Shown here in pieces: positions 6,111-51,929 of a stretch of DNA of 64,000 bases; the stretch's first letter is position 1; every line of letters starts with the position of its first letter. The notes beneath the pieces are model-generated. The model was not told where the DNA came from. It was given only the letters and a program-made list of their open reading frames with translations, and searched no databases. Source of the DNA: Squalus acanthias (taxonomy: Eukaryota); NCBI GenBank assembly GCA_030390025.1, contig CM059432.1, forward strand, positions 54,190,001 to 54,254,000, in the 5' to 3' direction. Both the position numbers and the translations under genes were made by a program.

Positions 6111-6785
6111 GGGGTGATAACTTCGCCGGGGCGCTACTTTTAGCGCCCCAAAAAAGTTAGCGCCCCTGCACCCGAAATTCAATGGTACCGCCCCAAGTAG
6201 GAGGCTGAGCGATACTGAAACGGTCCCCCTCCCTCTTGGGGCGCTCCCATTGAATATCATGGTGCCACATGCAGCAGCGCCATGTGCGTTGGCACGTAGC
6301 GCCGTGGTACTACAGGCCTCCCTCCCCTGATTAAAGGGGAGGGGCCTAGCGCAGCACGCACCGGGGCCCTGCTGGACCTCTGGGGAGCAGAGTGCCAGGC
6401 TGATGGATCCCGGCTTGCACCCTGCAGCAGGAGGCCAGAGGGGGCAGGTGCTGGCAGGCGGCATGAAAAAATGGCCACCCGGCACCTGCCTTTTAATTAT
6501 CGCCATCGCAGCCGCAAAAACGCCCCCCTGACCCTGTCGGACATAGCGTCTGGCAGTAGGCCAGGGGACGCGAGCCAAGTTTGCAGCCAGGGTGCTGCTC
6601 ATGGTGATGACGTCTTTGCCAGAGACGCAGCGCCACAGGGCGCTACCAGCTACCGCCACCACCAACCTCCCGCTGAATTTCGTGGGAGGCGTTAGCGGCA
6701 CCGTGCCCAGGCGCTAGTTGCTTTGCATCCCGTTAGCCCCCTTGGGGTGCTAACGGGAGGCGCAAAGCAACCAAAGTTTCCCCCC
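6111..6785. mobile_element. Non-autonomous Harbinger-type MITE
   Basis: TAT flanks both ends (6108-6110, 6786-6788). Imperfect TIRs GGGGTGATAACTT / AAAGTTTCCCCCC. The right subterminus is an inverted match to the left end of 6820-11038, and internal motifs are shared with 26220-27037. Confidence 0.75.
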
Positions 6786-7330
6786 TATAGTATAACTATT
6801 TGTTAATCTTCCATATTAAGGGGTAAAAATTCAGTTGGTTGCGCCTCCCGTTAGCGCCTTAAGAGGGCGCTAATGGGGCGCAAAGCCGCTAACGCCCGGG
6901 CGCAGCGATGTTTGCGCCGCTCGGGAACTTAACTAGAGATTGTGCGGCGGCGCTAAAACTTACCGCTGCGACCACCTGCGCGCGCAGATTGTGACGTCAT
7001 TCCATGGTGCAACGCCCTTGTGGCGCCCCGGAGCGGAAATTGAGTGGCGCCCCCTGCCTTACCGCCTGGCACATCCAACGACCGGAAGACTGGAACGCTA
7101 TCAATCGCTGTGGGGCTGGGGGGGTCGCTATTTAAAGGGGGCCTCTTCCTGTCTTTTTCTGTGGTCGACATTTTTGCACCACTCATTCTGAGAGAGAGAG
7201 AGAGATTCGGAGAGAGAGAAAGAGAGACTTCTGCATTGACTCAACGCTTTGTGAGGTAGTTTTGCCTACTGATCCTAACTTCGCTGGTACTTTAGTTGCT
7301 GTCCTTCATTACTTTGCTTGCAAAGAGAAT

Positions 7331-8491
7331 ATGGGGGCTGCACTGATTGGGGGCGTCGTCCTGCTCCAGCTGAATCGGAGGATACAGAGACGCAGAGAGA
7401 GAGTGGCAATGATGGCCAGACGGAGGAGGGCCAACAGGCGTATGTACAGGAGAGCTTACCCTCCCAGGGTATATCGTGAACAGCTCTCCTACATTCATAT
7501 GTCTGAGGAGCTGTGTTTGCGAAGGCTGCGATTCAGCAAGGAGGTGGTCACTGAGCTCTGCCACCTGCTGCAGCCAGATCTGCAGCCTCAACTGAGGTCC
7601 AGGACGTCTCTGTCGGTGGCAGTGAAGGTCACAGTGGCTCTCAACTTTTACGCTACTGGCTCATTTCAAGCTGCTGCTGGGGACCTCGCCAATATCTTCC
7701 AGTTTGCGGTGCATTGCTGCATCCGGCAGGTCACAAATGCCCTCTTTAAAAGGAGACGAGAGTTCATCTCTTTCCCCATGACCCCAGACAAGCAGCGTGA
7801 CCGCGCTCTGGGCTTTGCGAGGGTAGCGGGCTTCCCCATGGTGCAGGGCGCCATTGACTGCACGCATGTGGCTTTGCGTGCTCCGCATGAGAATGCCGAG
7901 GAATTCCGGAACAGAAAGGGGTTCCATTCCTTGAATGTTCAGTTGGTCTGTGACCACAGACAGCTGATACTCGCTGTCAATGCCCACTATCCTGGCAGCT
8001 GCCACGATGCTTTTATCCTGCGCCAGACTACTGTGGCAGAACTTTTCGAGGCACCGCATCAGCCAGTTGGTTGGCTTCTCGGGGACAAGGGGTATGCATT
8101 GAGCACCTGGCTGATGACACCGCTCCGCACGCCCAACACCCCTGCTGAGCTGCAGTACAATGAGAGCCATCAAGCTACCAGGAACATAATTGAGCGCACA
8201 ATCGGCGTGCTGAAGCAACGGTTCCGCTGTCTCGACCATTCTGGAGGAGCCCTGCAGTACTCGCCTGAGCGAGTATCCAACTTCGTAGTCGTGTGCTGCA
8301 TATTGCATAACATGGCAATCCTCAGGACCCAGCCAATGCCACCAGGCCTTGGAGCACCACCAGAGGAGGAGGAGGAAGAGGAGGAAGAGGACGAGGAGGA
8401 TGATCATCAGCAGCACCAAGGCGGGAGGGCGGCCCACAATGGTGAAACTGCAAGGGCCGTCCGTCAACGGCTAATAGCAAGCCGCTTCTAG
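7331..8491 (+). CDS. Harbinger (HARBI1-like, DDE_Tnp_4) transposase, 386 aa from the first ATG, intronless and uninterrupted
   Basis: Motifs GAIDCTH, NRKGFHSLNVQLVCD, PGSCHDAFIL, WLLGDKGY, YNESHQATRNIIERTIGVLKQRFRCL and CCILHN; acidic C-terminal tail. The open frame extends upstream to 7262. Confidence 0.95.
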   Translation: MGAALIGGVVLLQLNRRIQRRRERVAMMARRRRANRRMYRRAYPPRVYREQLSYIHMSEELCLRRLRFSKEVVTELCHLLQPDLQPQLRSRTSLSVAVKVTVALNFYATGSFQAAAGDLANIFQFAVHCCIRQVTNALFKRRREFISFPMTPDKQRDRALGFARVAGFPMVQGAIDCTHVALRAPHENAEEFRNRKGFHSLNVQLVCDHRQLILAVNAHYPGSCHDAFILRQTTVAELFEAPHQPVGWLLGDKGYALSTWLMTPLRTPNTPAELQYNESHQATRNIIERTIGVLKQRFRCLDHSGGALQYSPERVSNFVVVCCILHNMAILRTQPMPPGLGAPPEEEEEEEEEDEEDDHQQHQGGRAAHNGETARAVRQRLIASRF

Positions 8492-8620
8492 GGCCCCTGC
8501 TGTGGAAATGGCTTCTGCCATTGCTAACAACATTAGTGAACCCAGCACGCAACCCCTAAGCCGGCCAAGGCACCAATAATTCCAACCACCAACCATGTAT
8601 ATTTTGAATACAGAAACTTA

Positions 8621-8676
8621 TTTATTTTACAAACTCTGTGTGTGTCAATTCCTCATGACAAACTCATAGAAATAAA
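8621..8676. promoter_or_regulatory. Opposed polyadenylation signals between the convergent Harbinger genes
   Basis: TTTATT at 8621-8626 (AATAAA on minus) and AATAAA at 8671-8676 (plus); a further AATAAA at 8771. Confidence 0.5.
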
Positions 8677-8803
8677 CACAAAAAAACAGTCAATAACATA
8701 ACTGGTTCTCACAACCTGGAGATAATGTCCAAAACACTAAACAAAAGTTGGACCATGAACCTCGACCTTTAATAAAAAAATGACCAGCATTTTGTCACAC
8801 CTC

Positions 8804-10679
8804 CTACTTTTTGCCCTTCGAGGGTGATCTCCTTCCCTTGCGCACTTCCCCCCTTCTAACCCTACTGCTCCTCCGTAATGGGACCTCAGTGGCTGCAGCA
8901 AGGCTGGTGGAAGGCTGCTGCTCGTCAGACCCTGACACTGCAGATGCCCCTGAAGGACGGCCTCGACCACTTCTGGGCCTGGAGGGCCCGGCTGCAGACT
9001 GCACCAACTCTGCATGGGCGGCAGCAGTCTGTCCTACAGGCGGTGGCAAGTGCAGTGGAGAAGTGACAGTGTTGGCAGCAGGAATGCTGTCATCGTGAGA
9101 GAGGACAGCAACTTCCTGCTCGCCCGACACACTGGCACTCCCACGGGGCAGCACTTCAGCATCCGGAGCAATCTGCTGGAGAACAGATTGCTGGCCTGCT
9201 GCGGCGTGGTGACAGCCCCGGGGACATGTGCATGAACCATCGAGGTTGGCAGCAGTCTGTGCTCGCGTGGCCTCAATCTGAGTCTGCATGAGAGCAGTCA
9301 GAGATGGGATCACGGCAGCCAGTGACTGAATTGCAGCACTAAGCGTTAGTGTGGCATCTGCCTGTGCTACAGCGAAGTGCTCCACACTCCTTGCCAGTGA
9401 CTCAATGCATTCGGGCACCCTTCCCACTGCACCCATGAGCTCAGTGTGCATGCCCACCGCCTGGGTGTTCATTTCTGCGATCAGCCGCTCCTCCTCTGCG
9501 TCCATTGCAGTAGGAGTGTCTGGCATACTCTCCCTCTGGGGAGAAGGCCCCCGTTCTTCCCTACCCCCCCATGGCGTTGCTGCAGCCCGCTGGGTCCTGG
9601 AGCTTCACCCTCATCAGACCCTTCCCCCCTGCTCCCCTCCAGGGAAGGCGTGTTCCCAGTGTGGGCATGGGCTTCCTCGGGAGAGGGTGGCACTGATGCT
9701 CCGGCTTCCTCTTCCTCCTCGGCTGCAGCATCACTCCCAGTGGCAGCTTCAGGGCCCGTCTCCTCAGCTGGTGAATCACCATCTGAAAGCAGGGAGGTAC
9801 AAGAGTGGCTTTAGCGTGAGGACAGGGTGGCAGTAAGGGAGGAATAAGTGCAGCGACTTAGCAAGTTGGATTGAAAGTGTCAAAGGCTGGTGTTGTGAGG
9901 GACAAGTGGAAGGACAGAGGACAAAAAGGTGATGACCTTACCATTGCTGTCCAGAACGGGGTCGGCGTCTCCAGTGGCGACGGGACCGATCACCCGGCTT
10001 GCCACAATCCTGTGGACGTGCTCCTCAAGATCGCTGAGGGGTTGCAGCTGAGGCCGCCCTCCACATGTCCGTTGCTGCTGTCTCCGATTATGCGCCAGCT
10101 TGGCCTGTAAGAAAAAGGACAGCATCTGAGTAAATATACAGCCATGGTCTTGCCTGATGTGCCTCCCATAGGTGAATAGCCCTTACTGTATGCAGCCATG
10201 GTCTTGCCTGATGTGCCTCCCATAGGTGAATAGCCCTTACTGTATGCAGCCATGGTCTTGCCTGATGTGCCTCCCATAGGTGAATAGCCCTTACTGTATG
10301 CAAAGTGTGGAATGTGTGTGTGTGTTTCATGAAAGGGCCATAGGTGTTGGATGAGTGTTGTGCATTGGGGTTTTAAGACCCTCTGGCCATAGAGTGAGGT
10401 TGAGATGGAGGGATGGAGAGGTATTGAGAAAAAGCCACTCACCCTGACGACCCGAGTGAGGTCGTTGAACTTTTTGCGGCATTGAGTATGGGTCCTGGGC
10501 ACCATGCTCCTGGAGGAGACGCTCTGAGCCACCTCCCTCCACACTCTTCTGAACTCGCATGGCAAAGGCCTCCTGCCACTCTCAGGGAAGAGCATACATC
10601 TTCTGCGCTCCACCGCGCCAACCAGAGCATCCAAGGCCCGCTCTGTGAAGCGATGAGCTCGTTCTCTCACCCTCTCCAT
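8804..10679 (-). CDS. Harbinger Myb/SANT-like (trihelix, NAIF1/MSANTD-type) DNA-binding protein; exons 10679-10443, 10104-9942, 9782-8804; one frameshift near 9564-9570
   Basis: Exon 1 encodes RAHRFTERALDALV...WREVAQSV...RTHTQCRKKFNDL. GT-AG sites: AGG|GTGAGT, TTTCTTACAG|GCC, ATG|GTAAGG, CTTTCAG|AT. Exon 2 encodes AKLAHNRRQQQRTCGG. The basic C-terminus lies in ORF 8804-9526. Confidence 0.85.
10139..10302. repeat. Three perfect 54-bp tandem repeats in intron 1 of the Myb-like gene
   Basis: CAGCCATGGTCTTGCCTGATGTGCCTCCCATAGGTGAATAGCCCTTACTGTATG x3. Confidence 0.95.
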
Positions 10680-11374
10680 GCTTGGCAGCAAAATGGATTC
10701 ACAGGTCTCTCCAGGCCGAGATTCAAGGCTGCAATGAGCAGGGTGTGGCTGGGGAGCAAGTTGGCCCCCCCCGCTTTAAGAAGTGGCCGGCGCCAGTGTG
10801 TCTGTGTTCCCTCGCTAACTGGCAGCAGCTGCGCTGCGCTCGCGCGCTGAGTTAGCGCCTCACTGCTCGGCCTTTGCGCCTTAAGACCGGTGTGCAGCGC
10901 CTGATTTAGCGCTCCACTCACCTCCCGGGGCGGTAAAAGTGAAGTTTCCAGTCAGTGCCGATAATTAGCGCCAGGCGCTAATATTTGCGTCCAGACGATA
11001 TTTGCGCCCCAAATGGGGCGCGACCTAATTTTTCCCCCTAAGTGTTTTAAAGCTATTAGTCTGAAAATATGCAGATTACTCCTGAAATTTATGTATTCTT
11101 TTTCATAATAATCCATTGATTGATCGTGAAAATATCAATGTGGCTGTCTGAGGTATTTCATTGAAACATTAACAATGCTAGCGGATGAATGTAATTGAAT
11201 TCTTTCATGAGGACATTTGCTTTTTTGACTGCATATATTTTGGACGTTGGAAGCTCAGTATATTTGAATACTTTCTTTCTAGTCCTCTAGGAGCTGGTTT
11301 TGAAGTTAATCCAGACTGGAAATGATGCATCCTCTCCTTGATAGCTACCAAAGGTCATAAAAAATTTAGGTTTT

Positions 11375-25199: not shown

Positions 25200-26172
25200 A
25201 CCTGGTTGCTGCACCACTTAGCTCACGTAATTGCTGACAGATTTGTTCAGCTCAGTGGGACTGCCCTTGCTTGGCTCCACTCTCACCTATCCAATCGTAA
25301 CCAGAACCTACTCCGGAATTGGCTTCTCTTTCCGCCCCAAAACATTAGCTCTGAAATCCTCAAGGATCTATCTTTGGACTTTCTTCTTCCACACCTACAT
25401 GCTGCTTTTTGGCGATATCATCCACAGGCAGGGGGTCAGCTTTCACATGTATGCTGAGAACACCCTGCTTTAAATCTCCACCACCTCTCTCATCTCCTCC
25501 ACTGCCTCTGTTGTCAGATGCTGCAATTTCCTCCAATTAAATATTGGGAAGACCAAAGCCATTGTTTTCGGCCTCTGCCACAAATTCAGCACCCTTACCA
25601 GTGGTTCCATCCTCTCCTCCGACCACTGTCTCAGACTTAACCAGACTGTTCACAACCTTGGCATCCTATTCAACTCCAAATTGACCTTCCAATCCCATAT
25701 CCACTCCAAGACAAAGACTGCATACTTCCACCTCCATAATCTACTTAAGCCCATCTGCAGCTAAAACCTTCCTCTGTGTCTTTGTAAACTCCAGACTCAA
25801 CTATTCCAATGCTCTCCTGGCTGACCTTCCATCCTCCACCCTCTGTAGTCTTCAGCTCATCCAAAATTCAGCTTCCCATATCCTACCAGCACCAAGTCGC
25901 GCTCACCCATCACCCCTGTCTATGCTGACCTGCATTGGCATCTAGTCCCCCAATATCTTAGATTTAATATTCTCATCCTTGTGTTTAAATCCCTTCATGG
26001 CCTTGTCTCTCCCTTTCTCTGTAACCTCCTCCAGCCCTACAACACCCCACCCCACACCCAAACTCCATTTCTCTGAGTCTGGCCTCTTAATGATCCCTCT
26101 CTTCCTTTACCTCATCATTAACAACCATGCCATCACCCACTTGGGCCCCATGCTCTGGAATTCCCTCCCTAA
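25200..26172 (+). mobile_element. Old L2-clade LINE RT fragment
   Basis: LSGTALAWLHSHLSNR, SFHMYAEN (degenerate YADD), LQLNIGKT, SPITPV..LHW and LWNSLP. Confidence 0.8.
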
Positions 26173-26219
26173 CATTCATGAGCAGGTGAAGAAATCCATG
26201 GGTGCCAGAAGGAAACAAT

Positions 26220-27037
26220 GGGCGTGGAATTCGGTTACGCCTCGTTTGGGGACAGTAACCGAGTTAAGGACGGACATTTAGCGCCTAGCGCAGATGTCTG
26301 GCCCGGCTGCTAAATTCGGCTTACCACCCCACACAGGAAGTGGAGTGCAATGTCGAGCGCTCCACTTCCTGGCGGGGCGGTATCCAAGGCGATGTCGGGG
26401 CGCGATCGGCAGTGCTCCGCGTAGGCTCCGCGGAGCGCTGCCACGTTTCAACGCCGCTCCCCTTCAGTTAAAGGGGAGGGCCGCTGCGCATTCTGCAAGG
26501 CCTCCGATGGCCCACACTGGGCCACAAGGGCAGTGTGGTGCCATGGCAGCAGCCCGGTGTCGAGATGCGGTGCTGGGCTGCGTGATAGCGGCCTGGACCA
26601 TGCCACGGCACACCACGGAGGTTTTGACCTGGAGGTGGCCAAAAAAAGAAAATGGCGGCGCGTGTCGCAGCTGCACCTCCCCTTTAAATACCGCCCCACA
26701 AGTGGAGGTCGACCCGGCTCGTGACCCGCGAGGCTGGCGCTGACACTGCCCACGGCAGCCTCGCAGGGTGCAGCTGAATTTCTGCCGTGAGGCAGTAGAG
26801 GGACGCGGCGGGGCGCTAAGAGGTCACTGCGCATGGCGATGACATCATCGCTGGCGGCGCAGCGGCCCGGGGCACTAGCGGCAGGGTGCGGCACTATCGG
26901 GTAGCGCCTCAGCAACGCCCCACCGAATTTCTCTGGAGGTGCTTTTTTCGCCCCCCCCGGGCGATAAGCCCTTTGTGCCCCATTAGCACCCCCTGGAGGC
27001 GCTAGCGGCAGGTGCAAAGGAGCCAAATTTCTAGCCC
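26220..27037. mobile_element. Harbinger-type MITE related to 6111-6785
   Basis: Imperfect TIRs GGGCGTGGAATTCGG / CCAAATTTCTAGCCC. Shared internal blocks TTAAAGGGGAGGG, AAAATGGC...CCTTTAA, CATGGYGATGAC and CCGAATTT. CpG-rich. Confidence 0.7.
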
Positions 27038-27693: not shown

Positions 27694-28574
27694 GGGGGAA
27701 ATATGCAGTATCGCCCCGTTTGGGGCGCAATTATCGGCCGGGCGCAAAGTTTAGCGCCTGGCGCTAATTATCGCCTCCGACTGCAAACTTGGCTTTTATC
27801 GCTCCTGGAGGTGATTGGAGCGCTAAATCAGGCACTACACATCTGTCTTAAGGCGCAAAGGCCGAGGAGCGAGGTGCTATCTCAGAGCGCTGGCGAAGCT
27901 CATGTGATGTCAGTCAGCAATGGAACACAGACACAATGGCGCCGGCCAGTTCTTAAAGGGGAGGGTTGATCTTGCTCTCCATCCACATCCTGCTCATTGC
28001 AGCCTTGAATCTCGGCCTGGAGAGACCTGTACATCAAATCTGCTGGAAAGAACAATGGAGAGTACCAGGGAAAGAGCTCAGAGTGCAGCCCCCACACTCT
28101 CTTCTAAATAGATGCAAGGAATGGCAAATCAAAATGAACCTGCAAAGTGCTGCTCAGTACCCAAAACTCCTTCACACAGCGTTGAATCTCTCCAGAAGTC
28201 TCTCTCTCTCTCTCAGAATGCGTGGTGCAAAAATGTCACCAACAAAAAAAGGCAGGAAGCGTTCGCCTTTAAATAGCGTTCCCCCAGTCCCTTCCTGACT
28301 GCAAAACGCTCCCCTCAACCTGTCATTGCTAGCGTCAGGCGGTAAGGCAGGGGGTGCCACTCAATATCCGCTCTGGGGCGTTGCGCACTCGACTGACGTC
28401 ACAATCTGCCGGCGCAGGAGATCGTGGCGGTAGTGTTTAGCGTCGCCGCAAAATGTCTGGTCAATTTTGCAAGAGGCGCAGATATCGCCGCGCCCGGGTG
28501 CTAGTTGCTTTGCGCCCCATTAACACCCTCTTAAGGCGCTAACGGGAGGCGCAAACCAACTGAATTTTTCCCCC
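27694..28574 (-). mobile_element. Internally deleted, non-autonomous relative of the 6820-11038 Harbinger (881 bp)
   Basis: TAA TSD at 27691-27693 and 28575-28577. The left part matches the reverse complement of ~10650-11038 including the Myb start (MESTRERAQ vs MERVRERAH). The right part matches the reverse complement of 6820-7250. Confidence 0.93.
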
Positions 28575-51038: not shown

Positions 51039-51929
51039 GGGGGAGAAATTCAGTATCGCCCCATTTGGGGCGCAATTATCAGCCGGGCGCAAAGATTAGC
51101 GCCTGGTGCTAATTATCGCAACCGACTGCAAAATTGACTTTTATAGCCCCTGGAGGTGATTGGAGCGCTAAATCAGGCACTTCACACCTGTCTTAAGGCG
51201 CAAAGGCCGAGGAGCGAGGCGCTACCTCAGAGCGCTGGCGAAGCTAATGTGATGTCAGTCAGCAATGGAACACACACACAATGGCGCGGGCCAGTTCTTA
51301 AAGGGAGGGTTGATCTTGCTTTCCATCCACATCCTGCTCATTGCAGCCTTGAATCTCGGCCTGGAGAGACCTGTACATCAAATCTGCTGGAAAGAACAAT
51401 GGAGAGTACCAGGGAAAGAGCTCAGAGTGCAGCCCCCACAGTCTCTTCTAAATCGATACAAGGAAGGGCAAATCAAAATGAACCTGCAAAGTGCTGCTCA
51501 GTACCCAAAACTCCTTCAGACAACGTTGAATCTCTCCAGAAGTCTCTCTCTCTCTCTCTCAGAAAGTGTGGTTCAAAAATGTCACCAACAATAAAAGGCA
51601 GGAAGCAGTCGCCTTTAAATAGCGCTCCCCCATCCCTTCCTGACTGCAAAACGCTCCCCTCAACCTGTCGTTGCTAGCGGCAGGTGGTAAGGCAGGGGGC
51701 GCCACTCAATATCCGCTCCGGGGCGATACCGGGGCGTTGCGCACTCGACTGACGTCACGATCTGCCGGCGCAGGAGATTGTGGCGGTAGTGTTTAGCGCC
51801 GCTGCAAAATGTCTAGTTAATTTCGTGAGCGGCGCAAACATCGCCGCGCCCGGGCACTAGATGATTTGCGCCCCATTAGCGCCCTCTTAAGGCGATAACG
51901 GGAGGTGCAACCAAATGAATTTTTCCCCC
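51039..51929 (-). mobile_element. Second copy of the internally deleted Harbinger (same structure as 27694-28574)
   Basis: Collinear and highly similar to 27694-28574; termini GGGGGAGAAATT / AATTTTTCCCCC; imperfect flank duplication AAA/AAG; interrupts CR1 ORF2. Confidence 0.92.

Follow-up and report, generated by a model that had tools for sequence, protein, structure and literature searches.

We analysed a 64,000-bp window of the Squalus acanthias genome (assembly GCA_030390025.1, contig CM059432.1, forward strand, positions 54,190,001 to 54,254,000); coordinates below are those of this window. At 6820-11038 it carries a DNA transposon of the PIF/Harbinger type, which a preliminary description made from the sequence alone had presented as a structurally complete, two-gene, candidate active element. 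Our results favour, with a probability of roughly two in three, a full-length PIF/Harbinger copy that stems from a past wave of transposition, whose helper gene is predicted to be truncated in this copy and whose source lineage likely persisted and evolved within the shark lineage. What is new here is the dynamics of the family and not the type of element, and the copy itself is ordinary.

Structure of the element and its two genes

The element is flanked by TAA triplets and ends in terminal inverted repeats (TIRs) of 12 bp, GGGG(T/G)AAAAATT, which match at 11 of 12 positions and diverge further inward (Table 1). These ends are not a chance match, since the same ends delimit 73 of 80 genomic copies taken in order of position. 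They are shorter than the TIRs of 25-50 bp given for fish Harbingers (PMC9179366). A DDE_Tnp_4 transposase, a second gene of Myb/SANT-like type, TIRs and a 3-bp target duplication, which is TAA at this locus and perfect at 70 of the 100 copies examined, place the element among PIF/Harbinger transposons. The ratio of observed to expected CpG is 0.56 for the whole element, 0.83-0.98 at its ends and 0.34-0.42 in the flanks; the CpG retention, the TIRs and the duplications described before are confirmed. The repeated TTAGCGCC motifs close to both ends are likely binding sites of the Myb-like protein, a role drawn by analogy from Harbinger3_DR of zebrafish (PMC2836001).

Table 1. Features of the Harbinger element and its borders (window coordinates)
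Feature	Position	Strand	Basis
Left target-site duplication, TAA	6817-6819	+	Sequence
Left TIR, 12 bp	6820-6831	+	Same end in 73/80 sampled copies
Left subterminal CpG-rich region with repeated TTAGCGCC/GGCGCTAA motifs	6832-6990	.	Predicted to bind the Myb-like protein, by analogy
DDE transposase gene, intronless, open, 386 aa	7331-8491	+	Open reading frame, Pfam, acidic residues
Myb-like gene, predicted exon 3 (acidic linker and helical C-terminal part), out of frame here	8804-9782	-	
Run of seven C, frameshift in the Myb-like gene	9564-9570	+	C5 versus C6-or-longer states in the family
Myb-like gene, predicted exon 2	9942-10104	-	Conserved splice sites
54-bp tandem repeat, 3 copies (1-5 in other elements), within predicted intron 1	10135-10302	.	
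Myb-like gene, predicted exon 1, Myb/SANT-like domain	10443-10679	-	Pfam PF13873, E 3.4e-8
Right subterminal CpG-rich region, motifs as at the left end	10840-11026	.	Motif positions
Right TIR	11027-11038	-	Sequence
Right target-site duplication, TAA	11039-11041	+	Sequence

The transposase reading frame is uninterrupted, as the preliminary description had it. It matches DDE_Tnp_4 with an E value of 1.7e-40, and the acidic residues D176, D226, D252 and E288 sit in the motifs GAID, HDA, GDKGY and IER. Four residues differ from the majority of the subfamily, and three of these are private to this copy. A fold predicted from the single sequence reached a pLDDT (predicted local distance difference test) of 40 and was not used.

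The second gene lies on the minus strand, and its first exon encodes a Myb_DNA-bind_5 domain. Its exon structure is a prediction from sequence, in which the GT-AG sites of the three exons are kept in 26-27 of the 27 closest copies. No splice joint was seen among the listed contigs of one sequencing run that we guessed to be RNA, and these contigs cross the predicted introns. A protein search with exon 1 for longer proteins gave one match among 140 candidates, from Narcine. Exon 3 contains a run of seven C, where five or eight would keep the frame, and the predicted protein ends after 233 aa (stop at 9483-9481), whereas 18 of the 27 closest copies reach 458-459 aa. Genome-wide, 2,195 copies have five C in this run and 1,435 have at least six. 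A hand count of the first 100 long runs listed gave 66 with eight C, 19 with nine, 10 with seven, four with ten and one with six. C8 is thus the commonest long state, and the C7 of this copy probably arose from it by slippage, either in the germline or during assembly.

The earlier picture of a spliced Myb-like partner thus holds for the domain and the conserved splice sites, whereas the splicing is a prediction and the frame is shifted. Under the three-exon model the two genes are not both open in this copy as assembled, and the description as a structurally complete two-gene element is not confirmed. With its helper predicted to be truncated, this copy would need one supplied by another copy, and it is likely an ordinary, non-autonomous Harbinger.

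Age of the copy

Set against the majority sequence of its closest copies, the copy has 25 differences. It lies 0.55% from the majority of its subfamily, termed Y below, and 0.75% from its nearest sibling. From 3,495 candidates the best 40 were taken and 30 of them aligned; every one showed at least 16 changes over 3.3 kb, so that no near-identical sibling was found there. A mutation rate of 7e-10 per generation, with a wide interval, is available for the epaulette shark (PMC10587355); at this rate, which is that of another species, a divergence of 0.5% means millions of generations. Two subfamilies newer than Y exist, the newest of which, Z, differs from this copy by about 5-6%. In another DNA run of the same organism, searched for this locus only, no empty-site joint was present among 15 listed of 100, and one contig links the flank to 21 letters of the right end, which is below the bridging threshold. 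The frameshift in the Myb-like gene, the four transposase changes and these distances speak against the claim that this very copy is recent and autonomous or nearly so.

Family size and target sites

Exact searches of the genome returned 3,541 and 7,992 matches for two transposase words (the latter a 20-mer, whose count takes in some relatives at ~80% identity) and 8,317 for a left-end word; the reversed controls returned 0. The genome-wide count that had been proposed as a check therefore gives thousands of copies. Among the first 80 matches of the 3,541-copy word, all on one chromosome, 73 have both ends. Of these both-ended copies, 54 carry a perfect 3-bp duplication; the transposase is open in 28, the Myb-like gene in 40 and both genes in 18. 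A matrix built from the 70 perfect-duplication sites is symmetric, with A at -5 and T at +5 as the strongest positions (1.3-1.4 bits), and resembles the AAACAC...TTT target arms of Harbinger3_DR (PMC3016246). The 3-bp centre is A/T-rich, and a CWG centre is absent among the 54 perfect duplications.

Some insertions share a site. An 8-bp tandem repeat that ends another repeat received 17 of 100 insertions (L002, L003, L010 and 14 more), several with a second Harbinger end nearby. Six copies (L043, L049, L056, L070, L099 and L184), together with an internally deleted relative at 51039-51929 of the window, lie in one abundant repeat, at one or two spots ~30 bp apart and in both orientations. The deleted relative is bordered by one spot at its left end and by the other at its right end, as would result from loss of the intervening stretch. 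The near-identical pair L043 and L044 was set aside as a duplication and not two insertions: the flanks are 98.8% alike and the copies lie 32 kb apart.

A ladder of subfamilies with a fast backbone

We aligned 136 of the ~8,000 copies, 27 chosen by likeness to this copy and 73 + 18 + 18 by position. They fall into subfamilies that succeed one another along a single ladder: old, W, Y (with this copy), C8 and Z. Without the root row and five rows that were rearranged, partial or duplicated, backbone depth and terminal length were inversely correlated (Spearman -0.73, n=130), the former climbing from 3.5 to 21.1% as the latter drops from 3.3 to 0.23%. From old1 to Z the backbone gains 14.6 points against 1.3 in terminal length; overall the ratio is about 6-11, a backbone gain of about 15-18% substitutions standing against 1-3% ageing of inserted copies.

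The derived sites are strongly one-sided. Against outgroups, Y has 3 derived sites and C8 97, and C8 has 9 and Z 65, spread along the whole element, with terminal lengths equal in Y and C8 copies (0.45 and 0.42%). Intermediates are nested in 14/14, 47/48 and 53/53 cases, and in 42/48 and 4/7 for two other pairs. CpG decay accounts for 24 of 304 changes on the backbone versus 478 of 1,549 terminal changes.

The two genes differ in how they change along the ladder. In the transposase the steps sum to 74 nonsynonymous (N) and 75 synonymous (S) changes. The ratio of their proportions per site (pN/pS) is 0.17-0.50 per step and 0.09-0.30 in the core; it is ~0.3 on the backbone and 0.67 for terminal changes, with a neutral expectation of 0.76-0.81. 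The tail of the Myb-like protein counts 50 N to 11 S over five steps and 18 N to 1 S in the last one, a hint that its fast change may reflect a conflict with the host.

The newest subfamily

Among the best 40 of 2,059 candidates, a Z copy has 11 full-score matches, itself included, over 2,721 bp that cover the whole transposase, and 15 further matches that differ by a single change. The 11 identical copies are on seven chromosomes and have 11 different left flanks. In one of them the transposase is open over 386 aa and identical to that of this copy at 353/386 positions. Identical copies at independent sites were thus found in Z and not among the best 40 candidates for Y, and Z copies likely moved very recently; identity over 2.7 kb is no proof of present-day movement, because a slow clock allows some hundred thousand generations. 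The label "candidate active" can accordingly be kept for the family, through Z, and not for this copy. A reading as an extinct family was discarded: the initial word, which gave no identical pairs, had missed the newer subfamilies, and Z has identical copies.

Under the three-exon model, one of seven sampled Z copies reads through the Myb-like gene. Exon 3 is out of frame in most sampled Z copies, which points either to a weakness inherent in the gene or to faulty assembly. Copies L162, L163, L166, L170, L172, L175 and L177 have one or two extra 87-bp units with long C-runs in this exon.

Relatives of the transposase

The closest transposases are shark and ray proteins annotated "putative nuclease HARBI1" (Pristiophorus, Narcine, Mobula and Heptranchias), the best at 66% identity. 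In a quick tree of 40 rows, the transposase falls inside a 33-row clade that is chondrichthyan except for one row. The shark and ray proteins belong to the same clade and, at 66% identity at most, form separate families. Protein relatives, tree and copy number bear out the earlier assignment to a young PIF/Harbinger of a chondrichthyan clade and not to host HARBI1.

Other Harbinger-type sequences in the window

A 675-bp non-coding Harbinger-type element in opposite orientation occupies 6111-6785, has TAT on both sides and ends 34 bp before the main element; one of its ends is 76% like the main left end. Two internally deleted relatives of ~885 bp, at 27694-28574 and 51039-51929, have TIRs and are 73-82% similar to both ends. 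The stretch 26001-27000 is GC-rich (61%), and a 70-bp left-end match at 26948-27017 is probably another Harbinger-type remnant.

Probable persistence of a source lineage and its alternatives

By analogy with Harbinger3_DR, the Myb-like protein would bind the element ends and recruit the DDE transposase, and the element would be excised and inserted at a weakly palindromic target with duplication of 3 bp. Copy number would likely grow when the gap left at the donor site is repaired from the sister chromatid. The source lineage could then be a chain of fresh, unmethylated copies that serve as both source and substrate, in which changes would accumulate over repeated rounds of transposition and gap repair. 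A working transposase would act as a filter, only copies that have one carrying the lineage on, and inserted copies would become methylated and silenced and decay at the slow rate of the host. A fast, selected source lineage of this kind is unexpected in a DNA transposon. Its fullest form is somewhat less likely than not: a single source lineage resembling that of LINE-1, without host jumps, with a selected transposase, a clock ~6-11 times that of the host, a tail perhaps in conflict with the host, and continued mobility in natural, unrepaired copies.

Several observations weigh against a lineage that persisted within sharks. A fast clock, low CpG decay and purifying selection would be equally expected from a stay in another host. 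Of the 136 aligned copies, 109 lie within the initial 75 Mb of a single chromosome; the other 27 were picked by likeness to this copy, and the tree drew, with a quick method, on the best 120 of 339 matches. Terminal pN/pS is slightly under the neutral expectation. Copies L026 and L011 are mosaic, with tracts of another subfamily, and the W-to-Y intermediates are patchy and partly nested, with W and Y states interleaved; recombination therefore contributes. Finally, misassembly may account for the C7 run.

Repeated re-invasion, in which the lineage evolves in a faster, poorly methylated outside host (a parasite, prey or a virus) and reseeds the shark, so that the waves are snapshots, is unlikely, though it survives best among the alternatives. 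It would account for the low CpG decay and the fast backbone, purifying selection on DNA transposases has been linked to horizontal transfer (PMC7070016), and sequencing runs of other organisms contain 57-64% of the words of the element. However, contigs from two such runs, X7 and X9, have depths of 5-40, consensus-like letters and little flank, as trace DNA would. Many nested intermediates lie within this genome, and the best protein relatives are chondrichthyan at no more than 66% identity. No relative appeared in the metagenome or viral contigs searched, a negative that carries little weight for an animal element. Horizontal transfer from the organisms of X7 and X9 (B and D) was not used as an argument, trace DNA and a low-copy relative being indistinguishable there.

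Somewhat less probable again is that recombination and gene conversion between a small number of old subfamilies, present side by side and bursting at about the same time, produced the ladder as an artefact. The two mosaics, the interleaved W and Y states and the short terminal branches in all groups are what such an origin predicts, but the derived sites are one-sided, element-wide and nested, and terminal length declines steadily along the ladder.

That this particular copy is autonomous and active at present is very improbable. Its transposase is open with all acidic residues, its ends and duplication are intact and its C7 may be a misread C8; against this stand the 25 differences from the closest-copy majority, the frameshift as assembled, the lack of a near-identical sibling among the best 40 candidates and the two newer subfamilies. 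A domesticated host gene pair of the HARBI1/NAIF1 type, suggested by the automatic name of the database matches, can be dismissed on copy number, thousands of dispersed copies with TIRs and varied duplications decaying near-neutrally where a single fixed copy without transposon ends would be expected.

Significance and comparison with known systems

A persistent, selected source lineage in this family bears on the open question of how DNA transposons persist without horizontal transfer. The slow clock of the host reveals the element's own rate, and divergence between the consensus sequences of subfamilies overstates age. Z copies are natural candidates for a two-component assay of a vertebrate Harbinger. 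A literature search, in which subscription papers were thinly covered, returned no description of a shark Harbinger family like this one or of a fast, selected ladder of a DNA transposon. The word "Harbinger" is absent from the main text of bioRxiv 10.1101/2025.06.08.657570, whose supplements may list such families. Harbingers were not detected in the elephant shark (PMC9179366), and the question of their presence in cartilaginous fish beyond that species is answered here for one genome; Harbinger-type elements had already been listed for the grey reef shark (PMC12498223).

Like Harbinger3_DR, the family combines a transposase with a Myb-like gene and inserts at a 3-bp core in a palindromic site with AAACAC-like arms (PMC2836001, PMC3016246). 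Both proteins are required for transposition in Harbinger3_DR and Ping/Pong (PMC2836001), and an active family with split roles is described in a nematode (PMC13668399). The target is looser here than in Harbinger3_DR, with its A/T-rich centre in place of CWG. Harbinger3_DR needed reconstruction, whereas in this family many natural copies (18 of 73) keep both frames open. Harbinger-Snek of sea kraits has likewise expanded greatly in a vertebrate and includes hundreds of intact two-gene copies (PMC8437027). However, the same source describes it as a single rapid burst that followed transfer from a marine invertebrate, whereas the present family forms a long ladder among chondrichthyan transposases.

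The family also resembles LINE-1 of mammals in its one source lineage, successive subfamilies and conserved enzyme. In mammals, LINE-1 evolves as a single lineage in the shape of a ladder. Purifying selection within the host has been described for LINE-1, whereas DNA transposons have been found to evolve neutrally within vertebrate genomes and to depend on host jumps (PMC7070016); to the latter pattern, as given there, the present family is a densely sampled counter-case. Unlike LINE-1, it is a cut-and-paste DNA element, which moves without an RNA step.

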